From: a virus
IMG/VR virus record: IMGVR_UViG_3300029554_000001
DNA: 64,000 bases
Direction: 5' to 3' (one strand)
How positions within the stretch are numbered: position 1 is the stretch's first letter; each line of letters begins with the position of its first letter. This document shows, piece after piece, positions 45,588-62,720 of the stretch. The notes under the pieces are model-generated. The model worked only from the letters and a program-made list of their open reading frames with translations, did no database searches and was not told where the DNA came from. A program made the translations under genes and the position numbers.

Positions 45588-46022
45588 ATGGAAGCAATTA
45601 AAAATTTTTTTGATGCCTATGCTTTTCTCTCTAATTTTTATAATGCACCTGTAAGTTATAATGGCTTAACCTATCACAATTCAGAAGCAGCGTTTCAAGC
45701 ACAAAAAGAAATTAGAGATGAAGACCGTAAAAAATATATTTTCATGAATCCAGCTCAAGCAAAACTTGCTGGTAGGAATTGTAAGTTGCGTAAAGATTGG
45801 GAAGATATTAAAGAGCAAACAATGTATGAAATTGTTAGTGCAAAATTTACTCAGAACAAAAATCTCGCCAAACTTCTTCTTGATACTGGTGACGCTTATC
45901 TTGAAGAGGGAAATTGGTGGCATGATACTACATGGGGAGTTTGCAATGGTGTTGGAGAAAATAAGTTAGGAAAGATTCTTATGCGCGTAAGAGAAGAACT
46001 TGATGGAGGAATTTGGGAATGA
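45588..46022 (+). CDS. NADAR (YbiA/DUF1768) family protein
   Basis: FLSNFYNAPVSYNGLTYHNSEAAFQAQK...W...TWG pattern characteristic of NADAR domains. ATG directly after the ligA TAA. Confidence 0.7.
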   Translation: MEAIKNFFDAYAFLSNFYNAPVSYNGLTYHNSEAAFQAQKEIRDEDRKKYIFMNPAQAKLAGRNCKLRKDWEDIKEQTMYEIVSAKFTQNKNLAKLLLDTGDAYLEEGNWWHDTTWGVCNGVGENKLGKILMRVREELDGGIWE

Positions 46023-46450
46023 ATAGTCAGATGGCTAATAAAGTAGACCATACTATTGATGGTAAATGTTCTGGATGTGGAGCTTGTTGTTCTGCAATTC
46101 TTTGTGTAAGTGATGCAGAAGTAAAGAAGATTAAAAAGTATCTTGGTCAGCATCCAGAAGTAAAAATGATTAATCGTAATACTGCTTTAGATAAAGATTT
46201 TAAAGATATTTGTCCTTTTTTGAACAAGGAAAACAAGTGCCAAATTTATGAAGTACGACCTGAGATTTGTTCTCGTTTTATTTGTTCTGCTTTTAAGGAT
46301 ACTTCTATTCCTCCTCTTAATCATAGAAATAAGAGAATCATTAATATGATTACTACATTTATGGGAGAAAAGACTTGTCCAAATGCTCCTGACCTCGTAG
46401 GGTTGAATAAGTTTTATGAAAGTAAAAAGAAAGAGGTTTATGGGAAATGA
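46019..46450 (+). CDS. YkgJ-family Cys-cluster (Zn/Fe-binding) protein
   Basis: CSGCGACC near the N-terminus, then CPFL...NKCQIYEVRPEICSRFIC. ATGA overlap with the upstream gene. Confidence 0.6.
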   Translation: MNSQMANKVDHTIDGKCSGCGACCSAILCVSDAEVKKIKKYLGQHPEVKMINRNTALDKDFKDICPFLNKENKCQIYEVRPEICSRFICSAFKDTSIPPLNHRNKRIINMITTFMGEKTCPNAPDLVGLNKFYESKKKEVYGK

Positions 46451-46716
46451 CAATTAAATATTGTTGTGAAAAGTGTGGAAAAGAGTTTTAGTCTTTAGGC
46501 GAATGTTATTTACATGAGAGAAAATGTATTGACGGGATAGATGGAAAGAAAGCCGTTTTAATGCTTGAAGAATTAAGTTATCCTTATGGGCAAGCTGTTT
46601 GTAAACATTGTGATAATCATTATATGGTTTATGGATGTGAGCTTTCTTGTAAGTATGAAAGGTCTTGTAAAAAGAGAGATAATTATCCTTTCTGGAAAGA
46701 AGAGGAAAAGGAATGA
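46447..46716 (+). CDS. small Cys-rich zinc-finger-like protein (missed by ORF track because of TAG)
   Basis: ATGA overlaps at both ends. 89 codons with one TAG (codon 15). CEKCGKEF[TAG]SLGECYLHERKC resembles a C2H2-like finger. Confidence 0.5.
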
Positions 46717-46982
46717 ATTTTCCAAAAAAGCAGCCTTTAGAATCTACTAAATGGCTAAAATATAAATTTAATAGAAAAGAAGATAATATTGAAGATGCTC
46801 AGACAAATTTGTTAAACTGGACAATTCTTAGTTATAATCCTGTTCAAAAAGATTATGTTTTAGCTGGTGTAATTACTAAAGTTACAGAAGATTATGTGGA
46901 ATTTTTAGGAGACCCTTCTGTTGTTAATACCAGATGGTTTCAGGAATCGTCTGTAGGGCATAGTTTGGAGTGTTTAAGTTAA
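46713..46982 (+). CDS. hypothetical protein
   Basis: ORF in a translationally coupled chain (ATGA overlap upstream, TAATG downstream). Confidence 0.5.
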   Translation: MNFPKKQPLESTKWLKYKFNRKEDNIEDAQTNLLNWTILSYNPVQKDYVLAGVITKVTEDYVEFLGDPSVVNTRWFQESSVGHSLECLS

Positions 46983-47593
46983 TGAATTATTATATTTCAG
47001 ATTTGCACTTTGGGCATAAAAACATTATTAATTTTGACCATCGCCCATATGATACAACAGAAGAAATGGAGCTTGGCTTAATTTCTCGTTGGAATAAACA
47101 AGTTTCAAATGCAGACCATGTATATGTACTTGGAGATTTTCTGTGGAAAGCAGGGTCAGATGAATGGATTCGTATTTTAAATAAGTTAAACGGTAATGTT
47201 CATTTAATTCAAGGCAATCATGACTGTAACCAATATTCTACAGGAGTTAGGAAAAAATTAGCTGAAATTTGTCATTATAAAGAAGTAACTGAGACAGTTG
47301 ATGGTAAACTTTATAGAGTAATTCTTTCTCATTTTGCAATTCTTTCATATTATGGGTCTTGTTATGATAATTGTTTCCATTTACATGGACATACTCATAC
47401 AACCAAAGAACAAGACTTGGTAGAAGATTTTGCTAAAATGGCAAAAGAAAAATTAAAAAATTCCAATGGGAATGAATATTTAAATAGAGCACAGATGATT
47501 AATGTTGGATGTATGATGCCTTATATGAATTATACTCCACAAACTTTTGAATATCTTTTGATGAAATATAAGAAGGGAGAAATAAAGGCGTAA
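46982..47593 (+). CDS. calcineurin-like metallophosphoesterase
   Basis: Motifs ISDLHFGH, VLGDF, GNHD and GHTH. Confidence 0.75.
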   Translation: MNYYISDLHFGHKNIINFDHRPYDTTEEMELGLISRWNKQVSNADHVYVLGDFLWKAGSDEWIRILNKLNGNVHLIQGNHDCNQYSTGVRKKLAEICHYKEVTETVDGKLYRVILSHFAILSYYGSCYDNCFHLHGHTHTTKEQDLVEDFAKMAKEKLKNSNGNEYLNRAQMINVGCMMPYMNYTPQTFEYLLMKYKKGEIKA

Positions 47594-48372
47594 TGAAAGT
47601 AACCCTTTTGAATCCTACTGTATTAGAGGATTTATATAAAAACCACGGTGAATTTGCTTGTGAATGTTATAATACAGATAAAAAATATGCTGAACGAGTG
47701 GGGAAGAAATGTGAAGATTCAGGTCACATGAGTGGTTCTCGTTGTGAATATATTAAATTTGAAATTGAAGCAGATAGAGGCACTTTAGAACAGATGATGC
47801 GCTCTGAAATTGGAGTGCGTTATGATAATCAGGACAAGTATGCTTACATGGATTTGATTGAAGCAATTCCCCGTGTAAGTCCTGATGAGATTGTTAAGAA
47901 TCTGGCTTCATTTAGATATATTGACAAAAATAATTTTACTTATATTATACCAAGTAATATTGAAAAAAATGAGAAAGCCAAGGCTTTGTATCAAAACCTT
48001 ATGAGTAATATTGATACAACTCGTAGGCTTATTCGTGATATCCTTACTGAGAATGGTGTTAAGATTAATGCCGCAGTAGAAGATGCTAATTTTGTTTTGC
48101 CAAGAGCAACTAATACCACTTTAGCGATAGGTTTTACTCCTGAAGCTTTAATTACATTTATGCATAAACGTTTATGTACCCGTGCTCAAGAACCTATTCG
48201 CAAAATTGCTGTTGAAATGAAAAGACAAATTGCAGGAATTAATCCAGTGTTTGCTAAAGAACTTGTTCCTCATTGTCAATATCTTCTTTGGTGTCCAGAG
48301 GGCGATAAGTGTTGTGGTAGATATCCTACTCGTGAAGAATTGAGGGATAAATTATGGAAGCAAGAATTGTAA
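47593..48372 (+). CDS. ThyX-like flavin-dependent thymidylate synthase (divergent)
   Basis: SGHMSGSRCEYIKFEIEADRGTLEQMMR...SFRYI resembles the ThyX SGH.S..EH...F.I.G.SR....L.RHR...S.RY core, with an insertion. TAATG overlap upstream. Confidence 0.5.
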   Translation: MKVTLLNPTVLEDLYKNHGEFACECYNTDKKYAERVGKKCEDSGHMSGSRCEYIKFEIEADRGTLEQMMRSEIGVRYDNQDKYAYMDLIEAIPRVSPDEIVKNLASFRYIDKNNFTYIIPSNIEKNEKAKALYQNLMSNIDTTRRLIRDILTENGVKINAAVEDANFVLPRATNTTLAIGFTPEALITFMHKRLCTRAQEPIRKIAVEMKRQIAGINPVFAKELVPHCQYLLWCPEGDKCCGRYPTREELRDKLWKQEL

Positions 48373-48905
48373 TAATTAATGGCTCTGGAGGTAGTGGAAA
48401 ATCTACTTTCGTAAGGTTGTGTAAAGAAATTTTAGAAAGTCAAACAAATTGGAATGTGCTGGAATTATCTACCGTAGATTGGGTAAAAGCAGTAGCTCAG
48501 TTCGCTGGATGGGATGGTAGCAAAGAAGAAAAAGATAGAAAATTTCTTCACGAATTAAAGATGGCGTTGGAAGAGTGGGATAATTCTCCCAATCAAAAAG
48601 TGTTTGACCAGATTAACACAGTGCTCAACAATGAAATGCTAAACAAAAGAAATTGGCTTTTCTTTGTTAATATTAGAGAACCTAAGTGTATTGGAGCTTT
48701 TATTAAACAAAATGAAACAGCAACAGGTTTATCTTGTAAAACTATGTTGGTTGAAAATGCAAATGTAGCCCCTATTATTTCCAATCCTGCTGATGGAGAA
48801 GTTCATTATTATCATTATGACACAATAATTAGCAATAGCTCTGATTTAGAAAATCTTAAAAAATGGGCTCATGATTATTTAGAATACGTTCAAAAAATAA
48901 TTTAA
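48354..48905 (+). CDS. P-loop NTPase/kinase-like protein (dNMP kinase candidate)
   Basis: Walker A NGSGGSGKST at the N-terminus. 183 aa. Confidence 0.5.
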   Translation: MEARIVIINGSGGSGKSTFVRLCKEILESQTNWNVLELSTVDWVKAVAQFAGWDGSKEEKDRKFLHELKMALEEWDNSPNQKVFDQINTVLNNEMLNKRNWLFFVNIREPKCIGAFIKQNETATGLSCKTMLVENANVAPIISNPADGEVHYYHYDTIISNSSDLENLKKWAHDYLEYVQKII

Positions 48906-50269: not shown

Positions 50270-51384
50270 TTTATTTAGACCATGCGGCTACAACTTTTGT
50301 ATCGTCTGAAATCATTGATATTATTAAAGATGATTTAGCTGAATATTGGGGTAATGCAAGCACGACCTATGGTTTAGGGCGTAAGAGTAAAAATTTAATT
50401 GAGGAAAGTCGTGCAAAAATTGCGCATGTTATGTGTGCTTTTCCAGAAGAAATTTATTTTACTTCTGGTAGTAGCGAAGGTAATGCGTGGGCTTTAGCTC
50501 AAAAAAGCAAATGTTTATGTAGTCCTTATGAGCATCATAATATCACAGAAAATCCCAAGTCAATAATTATTGATAAGAATTATCTTATTGATGCTGTTAA
50601 AGTTACAGAGAAAAGTGAAGAGTTGGGTTTTCTGTGGGGAGATTATAGTGGATTTCTTTTGTCTTGGATGTATGTAAATAATGAGACAGGAGAAATTTTT
50701 AATCCTCGTGAACATATGGATTTAGCTCATAGACTTAATATGTATTATCATTGTGATATGACACAGGCTTTAGGTAATGTTCCTATTGATATTAGACACA
50801 TGGCTGACATTGCTACTTTTAGTGGACATAAGGTGCATTCTCCTAAAGGTGTTGGCTTTATTTATTTTTCAAAAGATACTTTTCCTGTTGAGAAGATTAA
50901 GCCTTTAATTTATGGTGGAGACCAAGAAAGTAATCGTAGAGCTGGTACTGAAAATATTCCTTATATTCATGCTTTAGCTTTAACTGTTGATAAAGCTGTT
51001 GCCCATCAAAAAGAAAAAGATTTAGCTTGTAAGAAAATGAAGAGAGCTTTTCTTGAAGAACTTGGTAAATTATTTGAACCAAATGATTATATGATTGTTT
51101 CTCCTGCAAATAGTATTAATTCTACAGTGTGTGTTTGCTTTCACAATGTAGAGGGAGAAATTCTTCAATCTATGTTAGATGAAAAGGAAATTTATGTAGG
51201 GACAGGAAGTGCGTGTAATACAGGAGATATGAAAGCATCTGCTGTGTTAGAAGCTATGAAGATTCCAGAAGATTATATTCGTGGAGAAATTAGAATTTCT
51301 ATGAATGAAACTCAAAATACAGTTGAAGATGTAATTGAAACTGCAAGAGTATTACATGAATGTTATAAAATGGTTAGGAGTTGA
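50266..51384 (+). CDS. class V aminotransferase / cysteine desulfurase (NifS/IscS-like)
   Basis: IYLDHAATT N-terminal motif and PLP-lysine motif SGHKVHSPKGVGFIY. Confidence 0.75.
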   Translation: MIYLDHAATTFVSSEIIDIIKDDLAEYWGNASTTYGLGRKSKNLIEESRAKIAHVMCAFPEEIYFTSGSSEGNAWALAQKSKCLCSPYEHHNITENPKSIIIDKNYLIDAVKVTEKSEELGFLWGDYSGFLLSWMYVNNETGEIFNPREHMDLAHRLNMYYHCDMTQALGNVPIDIRHMADIATFSGHKVHSPKGVGFIYFSKDTFPVEKIKPLIYGGDQESNRRAGTENIPYIHALALTVDKAVAHQKEKDLACKKMKRAFLEELGKLFEPNDYMIVSPANSINSTVCVCFHNVEGEILQSMLDEKEIYVGTGSACNTGDMKASAVLEAMKIPEDYIRGEIRISMNETQNTVEDVIETARVLHECYKMVRS

Positions 51385-51389
51385 TTATA

Positions 51390-53168
51390 ATGAACTTTAA
51401 GCCAAGTACATATCAACAAGATATTTTAGATTTTTTTCTTAACAATCCTCAAAGTAACATGCTTGTAAATGCTTTGGCTGGAAGTGGTAAGTCAACAACT
51501 GCTTGTATGCTTTCTGAACATTCAAAAACTTCTGATTTATATATTGCATTTAATGCAAGTGTAGTTGAGGAGTTTAAGAAAAAGATTAAGAATCCTAAGA
51601 CTAAGGTTATGACGATGCATTCTTTAGCATATTCTATTATGCTTTATAATGTAGAACAAGAATCTAAGGATTCAGGAGAAAAGCCAAAAGGTTTTGGTTC
51701 TCAGCGCTCTAAAAGAACTGTGAGTTTAGATAATTTTAAGCCACATAAAATTCTTGATGAAGAAATCACAAAACGTTATGGTAGATATATTGAATTTGCC
51801 AAGCGAGTTTTCTTGAAAGATAATTATGTAAATCTTTATAATTTGTGCAGATTAACTCTTACCGATATGTCTTCAAATAAAGATGTATCTCGTTTAATTG
51901 ATGACCATGTATTATTTTTGTATTATGGTGACGAAGGTTATTCTGCGCCTGATATTAGTGAAATTACTTCTACATTGAAGATTCTTGATACTAAAAGTAG
52001 ACAACAATTTGAAACTCAAGGTGTAATTGATTTTACTGATATGTTGTGGATTACTTTTAATAAACTGAAATATGATAATTGGGAAGTCCCTTATTGGGCT
52101 TTGTATACAAATATTTATTGTGATGAGGTTCAAGATTTTTCTAATATTCAATTAAATTTTCTAAAGTTTATTAAAAGAACTAAGGGTAGATATGTTTTTA
52201 TTGGAGATTTTCATCAGGCCATTTATAATTTTGCTGGTGCTAATGCTCAAGCTTTTAATCAAATTCCTAAGATGTTTGCTCCTGTAGAAACTTTTGATTT
52301 ACCTATTTGTTATCGTTGTGCTAAGTCTCATCTTAGTAGAGTAAATAGAGAATATGGGATTCCTATTCTTCCTTGTGATGATGCTCCAATGGGGTTTGTT
52401 AAAACTATTGACAAAAACAAAATTTCAGAGTATGCTAAAGCAGGAGATATGGTAATTTCCAGAAAAAACAAATGGATAGCTGAGGTAGTGCTTGATTTAG
52501 CTCGAAATGGAACACCTATTTTTATTGAGGATAAAGATATGGTAGCGGCAATTAAAAGACAGATTTTATCATCCAAATGCACCTCGGTTGGCACACTCGA
52601 AAAATTCCTTCAAAAAGTAATAAGTAATTATAATAAAAAACTCTTTGAAATCGTTTCAAAAAATGTCCGTGAGGGGGGACACGAGGAAGAGCGTTTGGAA
52701 GCCGTGGCGGAGACAAATTCTAAGATAGATAATACGAGCTTTTTGTTAGAGATTTTGGAAGGGTATCTTGAAAATCATGCCTCTTCTGATAGTATTTCTA
52801 AATTTTCTAATTTTATTGATAAACTATTAAATACTACACCTTCTCCTAATTGTGTTAGACTTTGTAGTATTCATAAAGCTAAAGGCCTTGAAGCTACGAA
52901 TGTTTTTGTTTTGAATGAAGCTAAAATTAATTATGATTTTAGGAACAGTAAAGAACAAAATATTCAGGAAAAGAATTTAAGTTATATTGCAACTACTCGT
53001 GCAAAAGAGGGTTTGTATCTTGTTAAAGAACCTTCTAAGACAATAACTACTAGAAAGACTGATTATCTTCTTTCAGATAACTATCTTCTTCCAGATAACG
53101 ATGTTTTAAAGAAAAGGGAACAGGATTTTAAGAAAGCTATTGTACGAGAAATTATGAGTTGTTTTTAA
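51390..53168 (+). CDS. UvrD/Rep/PcrA-like SF1 helicase
   Basis: Walker A ALAGSGKST, motif II YCDEVQDF, motif VI-like IHKAKGLEA. RBS AGGAG then ATG 51390. No TAG. Confidence 0.75.
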   Translation: MNFKPSTYQQDILDFFLNNPQSNMLVNALAGSGKSTTACMLSEHSKTSDLYIAFNASVVEEFKKKIKNPKTKVMTMHSLAYSIMLYNVEQESKDSGEKPKGFGSQRSKRTVSLDNFKPHKILDEEITKRYGRYIEFAKRVFLKDNYVNLYNLCRLTLTDMSSNKDVSRLIDDHVLFLYYGDEGYSAPDISEITSTLKILDTKSRQQFETQGVIDFTDMLWITFNKLKYDNWEVPYWALYTNIYCDEVQDFSNIQLNFLKFIKRTKGRYVFIGDFHQAIYNFAGANAQAFNQIPKMFAPVETFDLPICYRCAKSHLSRVNREYGIPILPCDDAPMGFVKTIDKNKISEYAKAGDMVISRKNKWIAEVVLDLARNGTPIFIEDKDMVAAIKRQILSSKCTSVGTLEKFLQKVISNYNKKLFEIVSKNVREGGHEEERLEAVAETNSKIDNTSFLLEILEGYLENHASSDSISKFSNFIDKLLNTTPSPNCVRLCSIHKAKGLEATNVFVLNEAKINYDFRNSKEQNIQEKNLSYIATTRAKEGLYLVKEPSKTITTRKTDYLLSDNYLLPDNDVLKKREQDFKKAIVREIMSCF

Positions 53169-53182
53169 GAAAGGATAATTTG

Positions 53183-53395
53183 ATGGCTAAGATTGAATGT
53201 AAAGGTTGTACTCCTAATTGTCCTTATTTTCCATATATGGATGGAACAGTTGATTGGGAATATAATGAGGAAGGATTGAAAGTCAGAAAGAAGAAAAAAA
53301 TTTTTGTTTGTTCTTATGACGGTCATCAAATTACAAATTGGACTGATGCGTGTCCAAAAGAATTAGATAGAATACTTAGTGAAAAAATTAATTAA
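53183..53395 (+). CDS. small Cys-rich protein
   Basis: RBS AAGAAAGGA then ATG 53183. 70 aa with CKGC..C and C...C pairs. Confidence 0.45.
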   Translation: MAKIECKGCTPNCPYFPYMDGTVDWEYNEEGLKVRKKKKIFVCSYDGHQITNWTDACPKELDRILSEKIN

Positions 53396-53415
53396 TTATA
53401 AAAGGAGTATTTAAA

Positions 53416-54144
53416 ATGGCTAATATTTTTAGTCGCAATTACAAGTTCGATGAGCCAAAAGTAACTTCTACTCAGGACAAGGGTTATTTTACTACCGAAG
53501 TTGCTTCTACTGATGAAGATGGTAAGATTGTTTCTTCTTCTGGTTATGTTTCTGTTTGGAAGCCCAAGGTAATGCATTGTCCTGACTGTGGTTGTCCTCT
53601 TATCCTTAATAACGGTGAGCTTGAATTTGCCGATGAAGATGATGACCTCTATGACTCTGACGATGACCTCTATGAAACTTGTGTTGAGTATGAGGAAGTA
53701 AATAAAGATATGTTTGACCTTCCTCCTTATTACAACATTTGTTATGGCATTCCTGCGGACCTTTCTTTGGGTAGTGATACTGCTCGTAGACTTGATAATT
53801 ATTATCATATTGTTGATAAGATTTCTGATAAGTTTGATGAGCGTTGTGCTGGTGAAACTATTTGGCTTCGGAATTTGTTTTTGCTTATGATTGCTAACAA
53901 GAAGTATGAACCAATTACTATGACCAATCTTGAACATTGTATTGAAGACCTCGCTCAGTATTGCATTAATGAAGAGATTTCTTATCTTGCTATGCCTTTT
54001 ATTGGGTGTGGTAAGGGGAAACTTGATTGGACGGATGTTCGTGCTATGATTATTAAAGTTTTTACTGAAGCTATCAACGAGGCTAAAAAGTTTGATTCTG
54101 AATATAATGGTTACAAGATTCATCTTACATTTTGCTACCAGTAA
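53416..54144 (+). CDS. macro-domain protein with acidic zinc-ribbon N-terminal region
   Basis: RBS AAAGGAG then ATG. The C-terminal half has macro-domain hallmarks (...NICYGIPADLSLGSDTARRL...SYLAMPFIGCGKGKLDWTDVRAMI...). The N-terminal part has CPDCGC and a tandem acidic DDLY repeat. Confidence 0.65.
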   Translation: MANIFSRNYKFDEPKVTSTQDKGYFTTEVASTDEDGKIVSSSGYVSVWKPKVMHCPDCGCPLILNNGELEFADEDDDLYDSDDDLYETCVEYEEVNKDMFDLPPYYNICYGIPADLSLGSDTARRLDNYYHIVDKISDKFDERCAGETIWLRNLFLLMIANKKYEPITMTNLEHCIEDLAQYCINEEISYLAMPFIGCGKGKLDWTDVRAMIIKVFTEAINEAKKFDSEYNGYKIHLTFCYQ

Positions 54145-54185
54145 ATTTGACCGATTGGATTAGTAAAAAATAACTGAATAAACCC

Positions 54186-54214
54186 TTGACAAATGTAAAT
54201 CTCTATGGTAATCT
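54186..54214 (+). promoter_or_regulatory. sigma70/sigmaA-type promoter overlapping an 11-bp perfect inverted repeat
   Basis: TTGACA (54186-54191), 17 nt, TAATCT (54209-54214). IR AAATCTCTATG (54197-54207) / CATAGAGATTT (54218-54228). Confidence 0.5.
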
Positions 54215-54252
54215 AATCATAGAGATTTACTTATTAAGAAAGGAAGTGGAAA

Positions 54253-55179
54253 ATGCCCTATAAAAAAAGAAAAGATAATTTGTGGTGTGTTTATAAGCAT
54301 ACAAGCCCTTCTGATGGAGTATATATAGGAATAACAAGTGATTATCCTTTAGCAAGATGGAGAAATGGTCGAGGATATGATTGTTGTGAAGTTATGAATA
54401 AAGCTATAAAAAAATATGGCTGGGAAAATTTTACTCATGAAATATTATTTGATAATTTAACAAAAGAAGAAGCTTGTTAGAAAGAAATAGAATTAATAGC
54501 CTTTTACAAAAATTAGGGACATTGTTATAATTTAGCTGAGCGGGGAACTAATGGATTAGCTTCAGAAGAAACTAAAAAGAAAATGTCTTCAAATAGACAG
54601 CGGAAAAACGCTCATGGTTGGCGGCATATTGTTTCTTCAGAAACTAAACAAACGGTAGCTAAAAAAATAAAAGGTATTAAAAGAAATTCAAAGACTAAAG
54701 AAAAATTAAGTAGCACGCATAGTAAAAAAGTTTATTAGTATAATTTAAACGGAGAATTAATTCAGGAATGGGACAGTGTATATCAAGCATCTAATATATT
54801 AGGATTAGCTCGAAGCCCAATTACACGTTGTAGATTATATTAGCAAAAAATTTATTAGAACTGTTTATGGCTGCTTGATTATATTGATGCTATATTAATA
54901 TAGAAATATTTAAACAATGAAATCATTATTCCTCCGATTAAAAATAAGTCTTTATTACAAAAGAAAGTAAGTTGTTTTTAGGATGAGAAAAAAATTAAAA
55001 CTTTTGATTCTATAAAAGAAGCTTCAAAATGGTCAAAAATTACTGAACAGCAAATTCGGTATGCTTGTAAAAACAATAAAATTGCAGGAGAATATTATTG
55101 GAAATATGAAGAAGATTATTTTGGTGACAATTATTTTCTTTATTGGGCCAATAATCAGGATAAAATAAAATAGGAGTAA
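54253..55179 (+). CDS. free-standing GIY-YIG homing endonuclease (8 in-frame TAG)
   Basis: RBS AAGGAAG then ATG. WCVYKHTSPSDGVYIGITSD...RW...G...KAIKKYGWENF..EIL is a GIY-YIG module. The frame continues through 8 TAG (hand count) to TAA 55177-55179. The C-terminal part has NUMOD/IENR-like DNA-binding repeats (YNLNGELIQEWDSVYQASNILGL..., KTFDSIKEASKWSKITEQQIRYACKN). Confidence 0.75.
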
Positions 55180-55180
55180 T

Positions 55181-56440
55181 ATGGAATATTGTAAATATCT
55201 TATTTTAGTAGACCCTAATAATAATGGGGTTGATTCAAATAAATTCTACAAAATGGCTGGAAATGGTGATGATACGTTTACTGTAGAATTTGGTCGTGTT
55301 GGTGCCACTCCTCAGACTAAAACTTATCCTATGTCTAAATGGAATTCTACTCTTGCCTCTAAGTTGAAGAAGGGATATGTTGACCGTTCTGATTTGATGC
55401 AGGAAGTTATTGCTGATTCCAAAATTGAGGATAAGTCTAATGGAGTAGATGAATTTAGTTTGGTTCAAAACCTATCTGTCCGAGAGATTGTTAAACGTCT
55501 TTGGGATTATGCTAATAAGACTATTCAATCTGCTTATTCTGTTCGTGCTGAAGCTGTTACTCAGGCTATGATTGATGCTGCTCAGGAAAAGATTGACTAT
55601 ATTGCAGCGAATTACAAAAACTGGTCTGTTGAGGAATTTAACAAGAATTTAAATGAGTTGTTCATTATTGTCCCTCGTAAGATGAAGCGTGTTTCTGACT
55701 GTCTTGTTTCTGATTCTTCTGAATACGACAAAAAGCTTTCTGAGGAACAAAGCTTGCTTGATACTATGGCTGGTCAGGTTTATAAGCCAAAGGCGAGAAT
55801 TGTTGATGCTGGTTCTGAAATTAAGGCTTCTGAAAGTATTTTACAGAAGATGGGTATTACCATGGAAGAAGCTACTCAGGAAGATATTGCTAAAATTAAA
55901 AAGGCAATGGGGGATTCTGCTGGAAAGTTTTACAAGGCTTGGCGTGTTACTAATCTTGAGACTGAAGAAAGATATCAGAAATTTACTTCAGAAAATAATA
56001 TTGGTAATGTAAAATTATTCTGCCATGGTAGCCGAAATCAGAATTGGTTTAACATTCTTAAGATGGGTTTAAAGATTCGCCCCGCAGGAGTTATTACAAC
56101 AGGTTTGATGTTTGGAAAGGGCGCCTATTTCTCGAATAGTGAGAAGTATCATGGAGGGGTAGCCAAATCTATTGGTTATACTTCTTTAGGTGGATATTGG
56201 ACTCGTGATTATCAGAATTGCGGCTTTATTGCTTTCTTTGATGTGGCTATTGGAGATAGTGTTGATGCCTATTCTTTTGATTCTAAGTATTATTCTTATA
56301 ATCTTGAGAGGCTAAAAAAGGACAATCCTAAAGCTTGGAGTTTGTGGGCTCATGGCAATACTTCTATGCTTCGCAACGATGAAATTATCGTTTACGATGA
56401 TAGACAAATGACTATTCGATATTTAGTGGAGATTAGATAA
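55181..56440 (+). CDS. WGR-domain poly(ADP-ribose)-polymerase-like ADP-ribosyltransferase
   Basis: N-terminal WGR-like segment (LILVDPNNNGVDSNKFYKM...FTVEFGRVGATPQTK). C-terminal PARP catalytic H-Y-E type motifs (LFCHGSRNQNWFNILKMGL, MFGKGAYFSN). No TAG. Confidence 0.75.
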   Translation: MEYCKYLILVDPNNNGVDSNKFYKMAGNGDDTFTVEFGRVGATPQTKTYPMSKWNSTLASKLKKGYVDRSDLMQEVIADSKIEDKSNGVDEFSLVQNLSVREIVKRLWDYANKTIQSAYSVRAEAVTQAMIDAAQEKIDYIAANYKNWSVEEFNKNLNELFIIVPRKMKRVSDCLVSDSSEYDKKLSEEQSLLDTMAGQVYKPKARIVDAGSEIKASESILQKMGITMEEATQEDIAKIKKAMGDSAGKFYKAWRVTNLETEERYQKFTSENNIGNVKLFCHGSRNQNWFNILKMGLKIRPAGVITTGLMFGKGAYFSNSEKYHGGVAKSIGYTSLGGYWTRDYQNCGFIAFFDVAIGDSVDAYSFDSKYYSYNLERLKKDNPKAWSLWAHGNTSMLRNDEIIVYDDRQMTIRYLVEIR

Positions 56441-57193
56441 ATGAAAGAGCCTGTAAAAATTGGAGACGTTTTCGGTCGTTTGAAGGTTTTGTACAAGTGT
56501 GATTACTAGTATCATGGACCTAATCGGAAACGAGCTAATTTGTGGCATGTGCAATGTTAGTGCGAAAATAAAACAGAATTTGATGTTTTAACAAATAGTT
56601 TGACTTCTGGTAACACAAGGTCTTGTGGTTGTTTACAAAAAGAGGCTACTATTGAGAGTGGAAAGAAAAGAAGAAAATTAAACAAATATGATTTAAGTGG
56701 AGAATATGGGATAGGATATACTTCTAAAAATGAACCTTTTTATTTTGATTTAGAAGATTATGATAAAATAAAAGAATATGTTTGGGTATATAATAAAGAA
56801 AAATATCCTGTTACAACTGTTTATAAAAATAATCAGCCTCATTATTTACATTTAAAAAGATTTGTTTTAGATATTACTGACTCTAAAATAGATGTAGACC
56901 ATAAAAACCATGTTCCTTATGATTGCAGAAAAGAAAACTTAAGACCTTTAGAACATTATCAAAATATTGGTCATTGTAAAATTTATACTAATAATACTTC
57001 TGGTGTTAAAGGCGTAAGTTACGATAAAATGCGAAATAAATGGAAAGCTTCTTTAGTTGTAAATAAAGAAACTAAATTAAACAAACGTTTTGATACTTTT
57101 GAAGAAGCTGTAAAAGCACGTCAAGACGCAGAAGAAAAATATCAACAAGGATTTAGATACAATTCTGATGAAGATTTGTATAATAGAGGATAA
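56441..57193 (+). CDS. HNH-type homing endonuclease with AP2 DNA-binding domain
   Basis: ATG abuts the PARP TAA. 2 TAG (codons 22 and 38) join it to ORF-track 56600..57193. HNH region VDHKNHVPYDCRKENLRPLEHYQN. AP2-like SGVKGVSYDKMRNKWKASLVVNKETKLNKRFDTFEEAVKARQDAEEKY. Confidence 0.75.
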
Positions 57194-57198
57194 ATAAA

Positions 57199-57687
57199 AT
57201 GATTGGTGAAATGCAGACTGTTTCTAGCGTAACTTTTGGTATTCCTTCTGATTTTCCTTCTCTTGTAGACTCTGTTGTGGGTTCTCTTAAAAAGGGATAT
57301 AGAGATTATTGTTTTACAAATAAGCAACTAAAAGAAATTATTGAAAAATGCCACGAGGCAAATGTAAGTTTTGCTTATCGTAAGCAGTTAGATGAAGATT
57401 ACAAGATTGAATATATTGAACTTATTCCTTGTACTTTTTATTTCGCAGAAACAGTCGAGGAAAATAAAGTCGAAAACATTCAGGTAGCAATGGAAAATCT
57501 TCCTGTGGCATTAATTTTCTGTCCTAAAAATAATAAGACTGATATTACTATTGATGCTGATTATCAGGAAAAGAATGAAAAAAGGGCAAAGAGTTATAAG
57601 AAGCTTGCATATTTCGATGATGATGGTTGTCCAGTATATATTGAAGACCTTACGAGAATGAGAAAGGAAAAAGAAAATGGAGTATAA
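57199..57687 (+). CDS. hypothetical protein
   Basis: 162-aa ORF, no TAG. Overlaps the next start. Confidence 0.5.
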   Translation: MIGEMQTVSSVTFGIPSDFPSLVDSVVGSLKKGYRDYCFTNKQLKEIIEKCHEANVSFAYRKQLDEDYKIEYIELIPCTFYFAETVEENKVENIQVAMENLPVALIFCPKNNKTDITIDADYQEKNEKRAKSYKKLAYFDDDGCPVYIEDLTRMRKEKENGV

Positions 57688-58510
57688 AACATTAGGCGAT
57701 AGAATGAAAGGAGCTTACGAGAATAAATATCGCAATTATCTTCCTGAGAATCTTCCTGTTATTGTTAGGCTTGATGGGCAGCACTTTCATTCCTTCTGTC
57801 GTGGTATGAAGAAACCTTTTGACCCAATTTTTGTTAAAACTATGCAACAAACTATGCTTAAGCTCTGTGAAATTATTCCTAATGTTAAGTTTGGTTATGT
57901 TGAATCTGATGAAATTTCTCTTGTCATGATTCAAAGTGAAAGAAATTCTCAGCCTTGGTTTGATAATAATATTCAAAAGATTGTTAGTACATCTGCTGCG
58001 CTTTGCACTCTTTGGTTTAATAATTATTTTGCTGAGAATACTATTATTGATACAACTTTGGATATCTTTAATATGGACCAAGATTCTTATGATTGGCGAA
58101 TGGTTCGTAAGGGAAAAGAAATGCCTACTTTTGATAGTAGAGTATTTGTTGTCCCTGCCTTTGAAGTGCATAATTATTTTGTTTGGAGACAGCAGGATTG
58201 TACTCGAAATTCTATTCAGGCAGTTGCTCAATCTTTGTATCCTCAAAAAGAACTTCATGGTATTAACACTACTAAATTGCAGGATAAGATGTTTACTGAA
58301 AAGGGTGTAAATTGGAACGATTATACGACAGTAGAGAAACGTGGTACTTGTGCTTATCGTGTTCCTACTACTGTTATTGGCAAAGATGGTCAGGAGGCTA
58401 TTCGTTATAAATGGGTTCTTGATTATGAAATGCCGATTTTAACAAGTGAAGAGGGTAAAAACTTTATTAGTCAAAAGGTATTTACCAATGAGTTTATTCA
58501 AAAATCCTGA
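57677..58510 (+). CDS. Thg1-like protein (tRNA-His guanylyltransferase family, 3'-5' nucleotidyl transferase)
   Basis: The N-terminus LGDRMKGYE...LPVIVRLDGQHFHSFCRGMKKPFD is the hallmark Thg1/TLP opening. Size ~277 aa. TGA stop. Confidence 0.75.
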   Translation: MEYKTLGDRMKGAYENKYRNYLPENLPVIVRLDGQHFHSFCRGMKKPFDPIFVKTMQQTMLKLCEIIPNVKFGYVESDEISLVMIQSERNSQPWFDNNIQKIVSTSAALCTLWFNNYFAENTIIDTTLDIFNMDQDSYDWRMVRKGKEMPTFDSRVFVVPAFEVHNYFVWRQQDCTRNSIQAVAQSLYPQKELHGINTTKLQDKMFTEKGVNWNDYTTVEKRGTCAYRVPTTVIGKDGQEAIRYKWVLDYEMPILTSEEGKNFISQKVFTNEFIQKS

Positions 58511-58904
58511 ACGTGCTAAATAGCTTGTAGATTTTAGCGGACTAAATGTTGAGGGAACTAGTATATATCCTTCTGATTTAGATTTTATCTTAGAACTTTG
58601 GGATGTCGGATATATGTTCGGAGAGTTTAAATATAAAGGAAAAGAAGTCGAAAGAGGGCAAGATTTATATTTAACTCGTATTGTAAGAGCTACAGAAAAA
58701 GCAGATAAATTTACTATTAGCTTTGTTGCAGACCATTATATATCTGACACTCACGAAATGATTCCTGCCGATAAATGTATTGTAAGAAAATATATGTTTA
58801 CTGGTATATATACATGGCTGTATCCAAAAGAGAAAACTACAGTCAAAGAGTTGCAGGATTGGTTTGTCCAAAAATGTAGATTTAAAAAACAATATAAAAA
58901 CTAA
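58488..58904 (+). CDS. hypothetical protein (one in-frame TAG)
   Basis: ATG 58488 overlaps the Thg1-like 3' end. TAG at codon 12 joins it to ORF-track 58614..58904. Confidence 0.5.
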
Positions 58905-59815: not shown

Positions 59816-59844
59816 TTGACAAATTAATGTTTGTGTGGTAATAT
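59816..59844 (+). promoter_or_regulatory. sigma70/sigmaA-type promoter driving a region without a convincing CDS
   Basis: TTGACA (59816-59821), 17 nt, TAATAT (59839-59844). Confidence 0.55.
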
Positions 59845-60063
59845 AAATATACAGTTGGTTAATCGGCAGTTACGAGAAGACAAGATAACTCGTAAAGAAA
59901 TGTGGTGCAACAGCTTTCTTGTCAAAGTGCCTAATATGTTGCCAAAAGACACCTTGCATCCAACTATAAAATCAAAAGGTAGCGAGTGTATCATTTTAAC
60001 GGTTTTGGGTACACATCTAAATAAAACTTTGAGAAAAAATAAAAAGAAAGTTTTATTAAAGCC

Positions 60064-60092
60064 TTGACAATTTGATGATTGTATGTTATGAT
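60064..60092 (+). promoter_or_regulatory. sigma70/sigmaA-type promoter upstream of tRNA-Leu
   Basis: TTGACA (60064-60069), 17 nt, TATGAT (60087-60092). tRNA-Leu starts 40 nt downstream. Confidence 0.6.
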
Positions 60093-60131
60093 TATCATGT
60101 TGAAAGGGAAAAGACAAACAATAAAAAATAT

Positions 60132-60217
60132 GCGGGTATGGTGGAATTGGTAGACACACTTGATTTAAGTTCAAATGTCTTGCAGACGTGAGGGTTCGAG
60201 TCCCTCTACCCGTACCA
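60132..60217 (+). tRNA. tRNA-Leu (anticodon UAA), type II with long variable arm, CCA encoded
   Basis: Hand-folded cloverleaf. Acceptor GCGGGTA/TACCCGT. D arm GTGGAATTGGTAGACAC. Anticodon loop TT-TAA-GT. Variable stem GTCT/AGAC. T arm GAGGG-TTCGAGT-CCCTC. A-CCA end. Confidence 0.85.
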
Positions 60218-60307
60218 TTCGCTTTTGCGGAACAAACTTGAGGCGAGGGAAGTTAGAAAACAGTAGTACCTGTACTATGAATTGATTTATAACTCGCCCA
60301 CATATTA

Positions 60308-60383
60308 CGGGGATTAGCGCAGTTGATAGCGCGCGTGGTTTGGGACCATGAGGCCGTGGGTTTGAGTCCCACATCTCCGACCA
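60308..60383 (+). tRNA. tRNA-Pro (anticodon UGG), CCA encoded
   Basis: Acceptor CGGGGAT/ATCTCCG. D arm GCGC-AGTTGATA-GCGC. Anticodon arm CGTGG-TT-TGG-GA-CCATG. T arm GTGGG-TTTGAGT-CCCAC. A-CCA end. Confidence 0.85.
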
Positions 60384-60421
60384 TATTTTTTAAATTTGTT
60401 ACAAAAAGTGAGGAATTAATT

Positions 60422-60733
60422 ATGCAGAAGAGTTGGAATAAGTTTGTTGCTGGTCTTCTTGTTGTTGTGATTTTTGTTGCAGTTTTGGCATTGTCTGGTT
60501 GTAACAATAGCAAGAATAGTATCGGGGCTGATGTAGATAGCGTTCCTGTTGGTTTTACTGATACTGGTTATATGGTAAAGAATGAACAAAATCGTGTTTA
60601 TCATATTGTTTCTGATATGAATGGCTGGCTTTATTATTGTTCTGATGTTGAAGGCAATCTTACTCCTATTCTAAATGCCTTTGGTACTCCTACTAAGGAT
60701 ACTACTCCTTTTGAGGAAATTAATAATGGTTGA
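60422..60733 (+). CDS. predicted lipoprotein
   Basis: RBS AGTGAGGA then ATG 60422. Signal peptide with lipobox: MQKSWNKFVAGLLVVVIFVAVLALSGC. Confidence 0.65.
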   Translation: MQKSWNKFVAGLLVVVIFVAVLALSGCNNSKNSIGADVDSVPVGFTDTGYMVKNEQNRVYHIVSDMNGWLYYCSDVEGNLTPILNAFGTPTKDTTPFEEINNG

Positions 60734-61088
60734 AAATTATTCTCCCGATGAAAAGTTCCTTACTCAAGAATTTACTCTAAAGAGAGATGAGTTGGGAAGC
60801 TGGCTTACAGATGCAATGTGGGAAGGTCTTAAAGATTGTTTTAGGACTCCCATTTGCGAAGAAATGACTTGTGAGAAAGATATTGGCTATGAAAGAGTCG
60901 TTGGGTTTGTAAGAACTCTTTATGTTGACCCTGAAAATAATTTTGTAACATTTGAGGGGCTTTTTTGGCCTACGTATTCTTCTAAAACTAAAGAAGAGTG
61001 GAATAATATTAATCTTTCTGGTGTTTCTTTTTATGTTGTAGGAGAAAAGAATCCTACAAAGATTCCTGTGTCTTGTTTTACAGTGTGA
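60726..61088 (+). CDS. hypothetical protein
   Basis: ATG 60726 overlaps the upstream TGA. 120 aa. TGA stop. Confidence 0.5.
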   Translation: MVENYSPDEKFLTQEFTLKRDELGSWLTDAMWEGLKDCFRTPICEEMTCEKDIGYERVVGFVRTLYVDPENNFVTFEGLFWPTYSSKTKEEWNNINLSGVSFYVVGEKNPTKIPVSCFTV

Positions 61089-61096
61089 GGTAAATT

Positions 61097-61531
61097 ATGT
61101 CTAAGAAGAGTTTTAAATATCGTAATTAGGTTGTTTGTCCGAAATGTCATCAAAAGTATTCAGCTAATTCTAATTATGAATGTCCTTATTGTCATACAAA
61201 ATTCTACGACTTGAGTTTTGTTGATACAAAAACAGAAAATGGTTCGCCTGTTTATGTAAGATATAAATGTAATGGGTATACTGGCTTTGCAGAAAATCCT
61301 AAAGAAGAGTATGATGTATTTATTACAGTAGCAACATTAGGGATTAATGTCGAAAACAATTTTAGTCATAATTATGATTATGTTTATAATTTTCGAAATG
61401 AATTTTATGCAAGACATTTACAAACCTCTTCTTTTAATGTAAAGGCAGAAATGGAAGCATTAGCTACTTCAGGAGAAAACGGTGAGCCTATTCTCTTTGT
61501 AGTTGAAGCTGTCCCTAAGAAGAAAAAATAA
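61097..61531 (+). CDS. zinc-ribbon protein (one in-frame TAG)
   Basis: ATG 61097. TAG at codon 11. CPKC...CPYC ribbon upstream of ORF-track 61211..61531. Confidence 0.55.
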
Positions 61532-61536
61532 GGTAT

Positions 61537-61612
61537 GCGTCTATAGTCTAACTGGATAAAACAAATCTCTCCTAAAGATTAGTTCTGAGTTCGAGTCTCG
61601 GTAGGCGTGCCA
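61537..61612 (+). tRNA. tRNA-Arg (anticodon CCU), CCA encoded
   Basis: Acceptor GCGTCTA/TAGGCGT (two G.U pairs). D arm GTCT-AACTGGATA-AAAC (one mismatch). Anticodon arm AATCT-CT-CCT-AA-AGATT. T arm CTGAG-TTCGAGT-CTCGG. G-CCA end. Confidence 0.75.
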
Positions 61613-61625
61613 GAAAGGAAAAGAT

Positions 61626-61865
61626 ATGCCCAAGTGGTTGATTATTGGAATTGTTTTAATTCTTAATCATATTCTGTGGATTTTCTTTGCTCATGTAATG
61701 AAGTGCATCGCAGAAAAAAATGAAAATTATTGGGATTTTAAGGCTGACCCATTTGAATCTTTGGGCGCATTTTTCTTTCCCTTATTTGTATTTATTTTTT
61801 CTGCTGCTAAGTTTGTCAGTAGAAAAGCCATTTATTCTGGCAAATTTGATGATAATGAAAAGTAA
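61626..61865 (+). CDS. small two-TM membrane protein
   Basis: RBS AAAGGAAAAG then ATG. Hydrophobic segments WLIIGIVLILNHILWIFFA and LGAFFFPLFVFIFSAA. Confidence 0.55.
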   Translation: MPKWLIIGIVLILNHILWIFFAHVMKCIAEKNENYWDFKADPFESLGAFFFPLFVFIFSAAKFVSRKAIYSGKFDDNEK

Positions 61866-61947
61866 AGGAAATAAAAAAATTCTTTTATTAAATACTTGAC
61901 AGATTTAAATATCTGTGTTACCCTATAAGAGAAGTGAGGAACATAAG

Positions 61948-62235
61948 TTGGAACTTTCTAAGAATCCTTCAATTAGATTCCTAACAGTTGTAAATGGTAA
62001 GGCTTGGTGTGATAATGATTCCGAAACTAAAAAGTTTAAGTTGACTAATACACCTCCTGAGCCTTTAAGAAAAGCTGTAGATGTTATTGCAGAAGATTTG
62101 GGAATTGATTTTCCTATGAGTTCTGCTAATTATGTTGCTAAAGTATACAAAGATTTTCTTGTAAAACATTTTGATTCATACCATCAGTATTATAAAAAGT
62201 TACAGGAAAATTTGCAAGAAACAGATAAAGAATAA
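61948..62235 (+). CDS. hypothetical protein (TTG start inferred)
   Basis: RBS AGTGAGGAA then TTG 61948, in the frame of ORF-track 61915..62235. A TTGACA box at 61895-61900 has only a poor -10 (TACCCT). Confidence 0.45.
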   Translation: MELSKNPSIRFLTVVNGKAWCDNDSETKKFKLTNTPPEPLRKAVDVIAEDLGIDFPMSSANYVAKVYKDFLVKHFDSYHQYYKKLQENLQETDKE

Positions 62236-62246
62236 AGGAGAAGGTT

Positions 62247-62720
62247 ATGTCAGTGTCTATTATTCAGGGAGATGTCCTTAAGACTTCGGCAAAGTATATT
62301 TGTCATCAGGTTAATACCTTTGGTGTAATGGGCGCTGGTGTTGCTCTTCAAATTAAGAAGAATTATCCTCATGTTTATTTGGAGTATAATAAGTTTTGTA
62401 GTTATCATACTCCTGAAGAGCTCTATGGTAAAGTTCTTCGAATTGAGGAAAATAAAGATAGAGTTTTCTTGAACATGTTTTCTCAGATTGGTATTGGTGG
62501 ACCAAATGTAAACACCAATTATGAATATTTTCATGAATGTCTTCTTAAGATTCGTGAAATGATTCCTATTGGAGAAGAGATTGCTATGCCTTATATGATT
62601 GGGTGTGGTCTTGCTGGTGGAGATTGGTCTATTATTAGCGCAGATATTTCTGATACTTTAGGACTAAGCCATATTGTACGTTTGTATGATTTTAATGGCG
62701 TGACTTCTGTGAAAAAGTAA
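62247..62720 (+). CDS. macro-domain protein (ADP-ribose binding/hydrolase)
   Basis: RBS AAAGGAGAAGG then ATG. IIQGDVL...YICHQVNTFGVMGAGVALQIKK...IAMPYMIGCGLAGGDW is a macro-domain signature. Confidence 0.75.
   Translation: MSVSIIQGDVLKTSAKYICHQVNTFGVMGAGVALQIKKNYPHVYLEYNKFCSYHTPEELYGKVLRIEENKDRVFLNMFSQIGIGGPNVNTNYEYFHECLLKIREMIPIGEEIAMPYMIGCGLAGGDWSIISADISDTLGLSHIVRLYDFNGVTSVKK

Follow-up and report, generated by a model that had tools for sequence, protein, structure and literature searches.

PARP signalling is a central DNA-damage pathway of eukaryotes, its prokaryotic and viral roots are poorly understood, and to our knowledge no phage PARP has a known function. The closest described systems are the bacterial PARP-PARG pairs, for which synthesis of poly(ADP-ribose) (PAR) in vitro, its reversal by the cognate PARG and the DNA requirement of the Herpetosiphon enzyme HaPARP have been documented (PMC8120803, PMC5966428, PMC4245714). 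Bacterial WGR-PARPs synthesise PAR in vitro, DNA-break-dependent synthesis being established among these only for the Herpetosiphon and C. difficile homologues (PMC8120803). Surveys of phages list PARPs in Cellulophaga phi4:1, XacN1 and gut "NAD-jumbo" phages, describe macro and NADAR domains as abundant, record PARP together with LigA in gut jumbo phages, and find that viral TARG1-like proteins mostly lack catalytic residues (PMC4245714, PMC7824862, PMC9503650, PMC11662467). One of them favours soluble ADP-ribose signals as the targets of phage macro domains and counts at least one such domain in 56% of jumbo phages (PMC9503650), so that carrying genes of this kind is not in itself beyond expectation. 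Here we describe a stretch of 64,000 nucleotides from IMG/VR virus record IMGVR_UViG_3300029554_000001, the whole of which we call the window, that encodes a PARP homologue, two macrodomain proteins (macro1 and macro2) and a NADAR protein.

The four open reading frames (ORFs), of 144, 242, 419 and 157 amino acids for NADAR, macro1, PARP and macro2 (Table 1), lie exactly where a first-pass annotation made from the DNA letters had placed them, and the folds and the catalytic triad on which that annotation staked its proposal hold. It had described a dispersed toolkit of one writer and three erasers of ADP-ribose. Dispersal is true of macro2 and NADAR, which are separate genes, but not of macro1, which is the conserved adjacent partner of the PARP in 41 of 43 evaluable loci. 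Similarly, macro2 and NADAR remain independent candidate erasers, whereas the role of eraser is unsupported for macro1 because both TARG1 catalytic residues, K84 and D125, are absent from it. The explanation that we favour, with a probability of about 0.5, is that macro1 and PARP form one functional module, working by the mechanism proposed below, and that macro2 and NADAR are two independent hydrolases.

By its WGR domain and an ADP-ribosyltransferase (ART) domain with an H-Y-E triad, the PARP is classed as PARP1-3 type (ARTD clade-1-like). Both domains exceed their Pfam cut-offs (ART, PF00644, 67.6 bits against 26.7; WGR, PF05406, 28.6 bits against 22), as the first-pass assignment had implied, and the protein aligns with the catalytic domain of human PARP1 at E 2e-10, with H282, Y316 and E401 falling on PARP1 H862, Y896 and E988. 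The triad, which the annotation had proposed to check, is invariant among 58 diverse phage and bacterial PARP homologues; these were gathered with a diverged PARP as query, an earlier search having returned only sequences at least 90% identical. An AlphaFold2 model (pLDDT 75.5) has a beta-sheet and helix at residues 1-70 and a helical bundle at residues 98-197. Its best full-length Foldseek matches are PARP1 and PARP2 WGR-CAT chains bound to DNA breaks, in alignments that cover about 490 columns; Pfam PARP_reg was not matched. The protein also matches phrog_23333 (E 3e-57).

The fold of macro1 is that of a macro domain of the TARG1/ALC1 class. Its Pfam Macro score of 20.8 bits is just under the cut-off of 22, yet residues 95-217 match human TARG1 (4j5q) in phmmer at E 3.4e-9, and the model matches TARG1 4j5r in Foldseek with a TM score of up to 0.85, normalised to the target, and E 4e-11. 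TARG1 K84 is replaced by A160, D125 by G201 and the GAGIA loop by GSDTA; D98, the equivalent of TARG1 D20, and the MPFIGCG loop, which belong to the ADP-ribose-binding features, are conserved. The ratio of nonsynonymous to synonymous substitution rates (dN/dS) is 0.14-0.26 for the macrodomain, a sign of purifying selection from which we take the domain to be functional, and 0.18-0.58 for the N-terminal extension. A decaying pseudogene was rejected on the strength of the same values together with motifs that are invariant across the clade. With its K84/D125 dyad missing, macro1 is not filed as a TARG1 enzyme and should not be assumed to be a hydrolase, which corrects the annotation; its residues suggest that it may be a reader or regulator, or an enzyme with a rewired active site. 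The first-pass annotation had also seen an acidic zinc-ribbon region fused to the macrodomain. The acidic stretch is real, but the ribbon was rejected, since there are neither four conserved zinc ligands (C55, C58 and C60 are the only conserved cysteines, and C88 varies) nor a confidently modelled fold (pLDDT below 50 for residues 1-87). Pfam matches to this region stay below threshold (DNA_ligase_ZBD, E 0.7; DUF7828, E 0.03). The extension corresponds approximately to the first half of a motif, W.C.CP.CG...C..C, that the longer relatives P0276-P0297 carry in full.

We collected 80 phage PARP loci, referred to where necessary by L numbers, and used an iterated macro profile to search the sequence on either side of each. 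A macro gene adjoins the PARP gene in 41 of the 43 loci that could be evaluated, across three PARP lineages that are mutually 41-48% identical. Within the clade of the window, 105-106 nucleotides separate the end of macro1 from the PARP start in most loci that have no intervening ORF, and about 1,039 nucleotides in those with a homing-endonuclease ORF; the exceptions are L099 (88 nucleotides) and L021 (255 nucleotides by the assigned ORF start). The two other lineages have a standalone macro gene of about 140 codons that ends 0-20 nucleotides 5' of the PARP gene or overlaps its start. The pairing recurs in L094, a contig from a Clostridium metagenome-assembled genome (MAG), and in the more diverged but syntenic L099, L101, L104 and L105. 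A UvrD gene is the syntenic anchor 5' of the pair in all relatives examined, and the order UvrD, small ORF(s), macro, PARP is common to L099, L101 and L103, except that no PARP is called downstream of the macro gene (protein P0276) in L103. macro1 and PARP are a conserved, operon-like adjacent pair within a TAG-free replication and repair block.

Alignment with human TARG1 divided the partners into two forms, 9 standalone and 32 extended, the latter being the window macro1, 7 members of its clade and 24 distant relatives from an exhaustive profile search. All nine standalone partners keep D20, the GAGIA loop, K84 and D125, and so look like true TARG1 orthologues; the one in L049 exceeds the Pfam Macro threshold. 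K84 and D125 are both absent from all 32 extended partners, of which 30 keep D20 and most have an MP.IGCG phosphate loop. In this form His, Lys or Arg predominates at position 124 and Glu or Asp at position 43, and a recurrent basic residue lies two to three residues beyond position 84. The N-terminus is extended in every one of them, by about 40-370 residues, often with the cysteine motif given above. In L044 and L063 a macro2-type protein occupies the slot 5' of the PARP instead, which suggests that a single PARP-linked role can be filled by either macro type.

The gene order invites another explanation, that of a toxin-antitoxin-like or addiction pair. The PARP would be toxic, by NAD+ depletion or by DNA or protein modification, and the upstream macro protein would be its antidote, by hydrolysis in the standalone form or by binding in the extended form. 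Such an arrangement would parallel DarT-DarG, with superinfection exclusion or control of self-toxicity as a possible outcome. A macro gene that comes first and junctions of 0-20 nucleotides or overlaps are typical of antitoxin-toxin coupling. In NCBIfam and PADLOC the macro proteins are closest to the DarG macrodomain, DarG neutralises DarT by direct binding as well as hydrolysis (PMC11125620), and an ART-YbiA toxin-antitoxin pair exists. We nevertheless give this explanation little credence. PARPs of the WGR-helical type are autoinhibited until they meet breaks, and bacterial PARPs have been purified without reported toxicity; the macro fusion of L103 persists with no PARP called downstream, although an antitoxin without its toxin is usually lost; and the replication block that holds the pair is of lytic type and is no mobile defence island.

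For the module of macro1 and PARP that we favour, we infer the mechanism from family knowledge, laid over the observed anatomy, adjacency, residue patterns and constraint. As a PARP1-3-type enzyme, the PARP would sense DNA breaks or nicks through its WGR domain, which would relieve the helical domain and activate the H-Y-E ART. The ART would then modify either itself and neighbouring proteins, on Glu or Asp, or DNA ends with ADP-ribose, which would probably form chains. In most phages of the lineage the mark would be removed by the standalone, catalytically complete TARG1 orthologue that is encoded directly upstream. In the window lineage the partner would have gained an N-terminal module and lost K84 and D125 while keeping ADP-ribose-binding features, and it would most likely bind the PARP product as a reader, adaptor or brake, or hydrolyse it through a rewired site. 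Erasure in this phage would pass to macro2, TARG1 and SCO6735 both being able to remove Glu-linked ADP-ribose, and macro2 and the LigA-coupled NADAR would also strip base-linked ADP-ribose put on phage DNA by host DarT-like toxins. It is conceivable, if on balance improbable, that the extended dyad-less TARG1 derivatives are an unrecognised class of phage ADP-ribose readers or adaptors that dock on the marks of the cognate PARP and deliver their N-terminal modules to damaged or cleaved phage DNA; these variable modules would be Cys-rich, and probably DNA-binding, or acidic. If this were true, a phage PAR-signalling circuit of writer, reader and eraser would operate inside the infected bacterium, analogous to PARP1-ALC1/macroH2A-TARG1 signalling in eukaryotes.

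Several observations weigh against the module or parts of it. The pairing is lineage-specific, since the iterated macro profile found no macro neighbour in 13 more distant PARP lineages at 39% identity or less, and in a Pfam scan of 138 neighbours of distant PARPs none of the 25 families listed, out of 52, was Macro, PARG or ARH. The activities of the proteins and the target of the PARP are predictions from sequence and family. Loss of K84 and D125 is no proof of inactivity, because SCO6735 is active though it lacks the dyad (PMC8120803), and the conserved basic and acidic residues of the extended partners could form a new active site. The presence of macro2 alone does not explain the degeneration of macro1, since in L026 and L029-L031 a macro2-type gene is present alongside a TARG1 partner whose dyad is intact. 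In L103 the extended dyad-less fusion P0276 (5001-5981, 326 amino acids) is kept in the UvrD-...-Thg1 string and no PARP gene was called within 5 kb 3' of it, where a 148-aa ORF and a Hydrolase_2 protein lie instead; the partner may therefore have a PARP-independent role. As to the NADAR, it scores 80 bits against TIGR02464, a model for a riboflavin-intermediate N-glycosidase, which is above the cut-off of 73.7, and it appears dispensable, because its equivalent in the otherwise near-identical genome of L006 (391-837) has a TGG-to-TGA nonsense change at codon 71.

The genes found beside PARPs in other phages bear on what the enzyme does. A DNA ligase lies 3' of the PARP in L001, L048, L095 and L096; RecJ, a kinase of the polynucleotide kinase (PNK) type and a phosphatase adjoin the macro-PARP pair in L094; and genes for RNA ligase, RlaP, a LigA fragment and RNase HII are found in the vicinity of distant phage PARPs, RNA ligase (PF09414) being their commonest annotated neighbour family with 5 of the 138 neighbours scanned. 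The neighbourhoods of PARPs in many phages point to DNA or RNA end repair, not offence. A distant PARP lineage (about 37% identity) has a conserved protein of about 240 amino acids that has no Pfam match directly 3' of the PARP, in L068 (11279-12019) and nine other loci (L071, L074, L076, L077, L079, L082 and L084-L086). Proteins of about 155 amino acids that lie 3' of the PARP in Cellulophaga and Klebsiella phages were considered as a shared partner and rejected, being unrelated to macro1, macro2 and the 162-aa ORF of the window.

The ART domain (55856-56440) exists as two alleles that are about 54% identical (dN 0.47, dS 0.85), the other allele being present in L018-L021, L023 and L024. The same phages are 86% identical to the window in the WGR and helical domains, 99% in macro2 and 94% in Thg1. 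The allele of the window has an extra SEKYHGGVA after the triad Tyr, and both alleles retain H-Y-E. They could be the result of either recombinational replacement or fast evolution, beside the HNH insertion site; the elevated dS of the divergent allele suggests recombination rather than positive selection alone.

In the model of the first-pass annotation the four genes act independently. An offensive PARP would modify host proteins, in the manner of Alt, ModA and ModB of T4, and both macro proteins and the NADAR would be three erasers directed against host ADP-ribosylation or NAD-derived immune signals. We hold this model to be doubtful. macro1 is tied to the PARP by an adjacency that has been conserved across 41-48% PARP identity, and it lacks the TARG1 dyad. 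The PARP has a break-sensing WGR-helical architecture, unlike a packaged or injected ART, and its gene is surrounded by genes for replication and repair, not by head genes. The model draws strength from surveys that propose host proteins as the substrates of phage PARTs and soluble ADP-ribose signals as what macro and NADAR domains degrade (PMC7824862, PMC9503650), and from the neutralisation of DarT1 by phage NADARs. The two ART alleles in otherwise near-identical phages could fit an arms race with a host target at stake, except that the dS of the divergent allele points to recombination and not to positive selection alone, as described.

The NADAR assignment of the first-pass annotation is borne out by Pfam (PF08719, 96 bits, where the cut-off is 35.1, and E 3.7e-27), by matches to the structures of E. 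coli YbiA (2b3w, E 1.2e-19) and of NADAR 8bau (E 2e-8), and by catalytic-type residues. In the alignment to YbiA, SEAAFQAQK supplies E33 and K40, and YLEE supplies the last-strand E107; a Glu/Lys pair, a last-strand Glu and no extension of the fold are the features by which the family was judged (PMC11125620, PMC11543638). The protein is by sequence not of the T4 gp30.3 type (16 bits against Phage_30_3, with a cut-off of 36). A single base separates the LigA stop codon from the start codon of the NADAR gene. Values of dN/dS are 0.11-0.35, apart from 0.71 in one near-identical comparison (dS 0.024). In L006, LigA is replaced 5' of the NADAR by a different sequence and Thg1 is missing 3', and the accessory genes of that genome appear dispensable. 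Neutralisation of DarT1 is documented for orphan phage NADARs that have several independent origins (PMC11825919). Every NADAR subfamily tested, YbiA included, removes guanine-linked ADP-ribose in vitro, and phage NADARs likewise act on guanine-ADP-ribose; specificity in cells is narrow, and E. coli YbiA gave no rescue from YarT toxicity there (PMC11125620). By analogy, the NADAR of the window is plausible as an independent candidate eraser of anti-DarT type.

macro2 likewise falls short of the Pfam Macro cut-off (18.5 bits against 22), yet its identity as a macro protein is secured by full-length matches to the macrodomains of DarG, SCO6735 and BT1257 (E 5e-8 to 2e-7). Its matches in the Protein Data Bank are 5m3i, 5e3b, 2afc, 2fg1 and 6lfu, residues 3-149 aligning with 5e3b, 2afc and 2fg1 at E 1e-7 to 2e-7, and it matches phrog_335 at E 1e-33. 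Sequence features place it in the SCO6735/BT1257 subclass, namely the full-length similarity, both motifs of that subclass (Table 1) and the absence of a K/D dyad; like macro1, it falls within the broader TARG1/DarG/SCO6735 class. Against the macro region of the NCBIfam/PADLOC DarG models it reaches E 1e-16 to 1e-17 and 60 bits, with an equivalog cut-off of 250 bits. NMFSQ stands where the Mycobacterium tuberculosis DarG has its catalytic-lysine segment FPTKKHW, so that the DarG-type lysine K80 is missing, as is a second, DarT-binding domain; an alignment with DarG also sets FPTKKHW opposite NLFGQ. Of the four genes, macro2 is under the strongest constraint (dN/dS 0.02-0.09). SCO6735 has been reported to cleave thymidine-linked ADP-ribose (PMC11833690), and macro2 too is plausible by analogy as an independent candidate eraser of anti-DarT type. 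With phage NADARs neutralising DarT1 and SCO6735 reported to act on thymidine-ADP-ribose (PMC11825919, PMC11833690), the suggestion of the first-pass annotation that such genes serve counter-defence is a reasonable one for macro2 and NADAR. In the unrelated cultured Klebsiella phage vB_KpM_FBKp34 (L002), the gene at 3064-3579 that is annotated as a putative phosphatase encodes a macro2-type macrodomain (macro profile E 3e-31) and lies 2.4 kb 5' of a PARP, so that the two co-occur in a phage that could be used for experiments.

The same two genes might instead serve housekeeping or repair chemistry, the NADAR as an N-glycosidase on small-molecule intermediates or on NAD by-products of LigA, and macro2 as a Poa1p-like phosphatase acting on ADP-ribose-1''-phosphate in tRNA or RNA repair with the PNK-like kinase and its HD domain, Rnl1, Thg1 and phosphatases. 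Such roles would suit the TIGR02464 score of the NADAR and its position one base after LigA, a match of macro2 to yeast Poa1p (E 2e-5), the label "phosphatase" on phrog_335, and a window that holds a PNK-like kinase and Rnl1 (35778-38137), a Pol-beta nucleotidyltransferase, Thg1 and a DSP phosphatase; a review of jumbo phages ties macro domains to KptA-dependent RNA repair. However, no Tpt1/KptA or 2H enzyme, the source of ADP-ribose-1''-phosphate, was found in the window annotations, the best full-length matches of macro2 are SCO6735, BT1257 and DarG and not Poa1p, and a macro2-type gene replaces the TARG1 partner directly 5' of the PARP in L044 and L063. Given also the activity of all tested NADAR subfamilies on guanine-ADP-ribose in vitro, we think a housekeeping role for the two genes unlikely.

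The ADP-ribose genes sit inside a block for replication, nucleotide metabolism and repair, the order of which is DnaB, RecJ, split PolIII alpha, RecD2-like helicase, PNK-like kinase, Rnl1, dUTPase, NrdD/G, Pol-beta nucleotidyltransferase, LigA, NADAR, metallophosphatase, ThyX, NifS-like protein, UvrD, macro1, PARP, Thg1, DSP phosphatase, tRNAs and macro2 (Table 1). The kinase, a polynucleotide-kinase-like protein of the AAA_33/KTI12 type, has a weak match to an HD domain and is followed by an RNA ligase of the T4 Rnl1 type; a comparable kinase-phosphatase-ligase set accompanies the PARG operon of D. radiodurans (PMC11833690). The Pol-beta-type nucleotidyltransferase (42709-43524) is just 5' of LigA. 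PolIII alpha is encoded by two ORFs about 750 nucleotides apart, 27986-29509 for the PHP/N-terminal part and 30258-32798 for the main body, and the spacer has a gap (29662-30182) with no ORF of at least 60 amino acids. Thg1 is syntenic in L099 and L103. The 162-aa ORF matched no Pfam or PHROG family; it is kept in 19 clade loci, has a 167-aa counterpart in L099, and shows dN/dS values of 0.04-0.17. The 10 unannotated ORFs examined in the surroundings of the four genes held no further gene of NAD or ADP-ribose metabolism, and a promoter and terminator scan of 53000-58600 gave matches no better than the shuffle level.

Table 1. Positions in the window of the ADP-ribose genes and of selected neighbouring features
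Feature	Position	Strand	Remarks
LigA, NAD-dependent DNA ligase	43598..45586	+	Pfam Nlig-Ia, DNA_ligase_aden, OB_DNA_ligase, BRCT; ends TAA
NADAR, YbiA family, 144 aa	45588..46022	+	E33, K40, E107 present; no N-terminal extension
UvrD-type helicase	51381..53168	+	Pfam UvrD-helicase, UvrD_C
macro1 N-terminal extension, aa 1-88	53416..53679	+	MANIFSRNYK start, CPDCGCP motif, acidic tract
macro1 macrodomain, aa 89-242	53680..54144	+	TARG1-derived; without catalytic dyad
Homing-endonuclease-like ORF, 308 codons	54253..55179	+	NUMOD1; GIY-YIG-like N-terminus by eye; splits macro1/PARP
WGR-helical-ART PARP homologue, 419 aa	55181..56440	+	WGR aa 1-70, helical domain aa 98-197, ART aa 226-419
Second homing-endonuclease-like ORF, 250 codons, 2 in-frame TAG	56441..57193	+	HNH_3 and AP2 (weak); directly after PARP stop
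162-aa ORF, no assigned family	57199..57687	+	Directly 3' of PARP in homing-endonuclease-free relatives
Thg1-like tRNA-His guanylyltransferase / 3'-5' polymerase	57677..58510	+	PF04446
macro2, standalone macrodomain, 157 aa	62247..62720	+	SCO6735/BT1257 subclass; NMFSQ and IGCGLAGGDW motifs

Both homing-endonuclease-like ORFs that flank the PARP gene are polymorphic in presence and absence (54145-55180 and 56441-57198, among L003-L025 and L099). The upstream one is absent from L014-L024 and L099. L008, L014 and L099 lack the downstream one, and in them the PARP adjoins the ORF of 162-167 amino acids, and in relatives without it this ORF begins 1-4 nucleotides after the PARP stop. The upstream ORF has eight internal stops, all TAG, and ends in TAA; it is open only with TAG read-through, and its NUMOD1 match (39.9 bits against a cut-off of 22.8) spans the TAG at codon 162. 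The designation of a truncated homing endonuclease was dropped since every in-frame stop is TAG. Judged from such frames, TAG is read through or recoded as sense in a subset of the genes of this phage. When only TAA and TGA are taken as stops, frame 1 is open over 1-10038 (at least 3,345 codons, 27 TAG), runs off the left edge and includes a PhageMin_Tail match at 4216-4707; 12933-16970 becomes a single ORF of 1,345 codons with 20 TAG, and NrdD (39919-41865) a single ORF of 648 codons with 4 TAG; both homing-endonuclease-like ORFs are then intact. On this strand TAG is less frequent than either of the other stop triplets (898, against 2,079 TAA and 1,725 TGA), and no suppressor tRNA is among the 4 tRNAs of the window. 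Gene calls with translation table 11 are fragmented in this phage because of the in-frame TAG codons. No TAG occurs in the four ADP-ribose genes or in LigA, UvrD, Thg1 and the phosphatase, all of which end in TAA or TGA and can thus be read under either code; for the ADP-ribose genes this would fit with expression before any switch in the reading of TAG.

The phage is a human-gut phage of about 215 kb; the window has a GC content of about 32% and every gene on the + strand. Many human-gut samples have yielded metagenome contigs of about 205-228 kb that encode identical copies of its proteins; one such contig, ENA ERZ1309208 NODE_21 (216,084 bp), contains the window at approximately positions 43.5-107.5 kb. 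A megablast search with 53000-57000 found no match among 50,697 phage records, and so there appears to be no close sequenced isolate. A Bacillota host is likely, since the replication genes resemble those of SPbeta-like Bacillus phages (YorL-type PolIII alpha, 44% identity) and related contigs are binned with "uncultured Clostridium sp." MAGs.

Gene sets with PARP, macro and NADAR in large phages have been catalogued before; the pairing and the two forms of the partner appear to be new. In the literature that we covered, incompletely, there was no description of a conserved phage pair of a TARG1-type gene followed by a PARP gene, of its catalytic and dyad-less forms or of the N-terminal accretions. 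In a phage lineage that is abundant in the human gut, a PARP1-like enzyme has a TARG1-type protein as its dedicated partner. The pair is a compact and genetically tractable system, with two small genes, natural and putatively active and inactive variants of the partner and two natural ART alleles, and it could be used to ask what the PARP modifies, whether the mark is read as well as erased, and how it interplays with host defences such as DarTG. Gene calling in this phage depends on recognising TAG read-through.

The comparison with known systems is closest for the PARP-PARG pairs of Herpetosiphon aurantiacus and Clostridioides difficile CD160, which share with the window pair a WGR(-helical)-ART PARP with H-Y-E that is encoded together with a macro-fold protein. 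Unlike them, the phage pair has a partner of the TARG1 class, in a catalytic standalone and a dyad-less extended form, and lies in a phage replication and repair block; no member of the PARG family is among the window Pfam annotations. Human TARG1/OARD1 (C6orf130) shares with macro1 the fold, D20 and the P-x-I-G-C-G loop, and the standalone partners keep every one of its key residues, in contrast to macro1, which differs from it in lacking K84 and D125, in having GSDTA for GAGIA and in its 88-aa N-terminal extension. macro2 aligns over its full length with DarG, SCO6735 and BT1257 and shares NM[IF][GS]Q and IGCGLAGG.W with the latter two. It differs from DarG in having no catalytic lysine, no C-terminal DarT-binding domain and no adjacent darT, and no DarT-like gene is among the Pfam annotations of the window. 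The NADAR shares its fold and a conserved Glu/Lys pair with AdfN of T4, Bas32 and Bas60 and with E. coli YbiA, whose family cleaves guanine-ADP-ribose in vitro (PMC11125620). On the last strand the window protein has the Glu of the YbiA type, where the T4 gp30.3 type has His and the DarG1 type has Asp.

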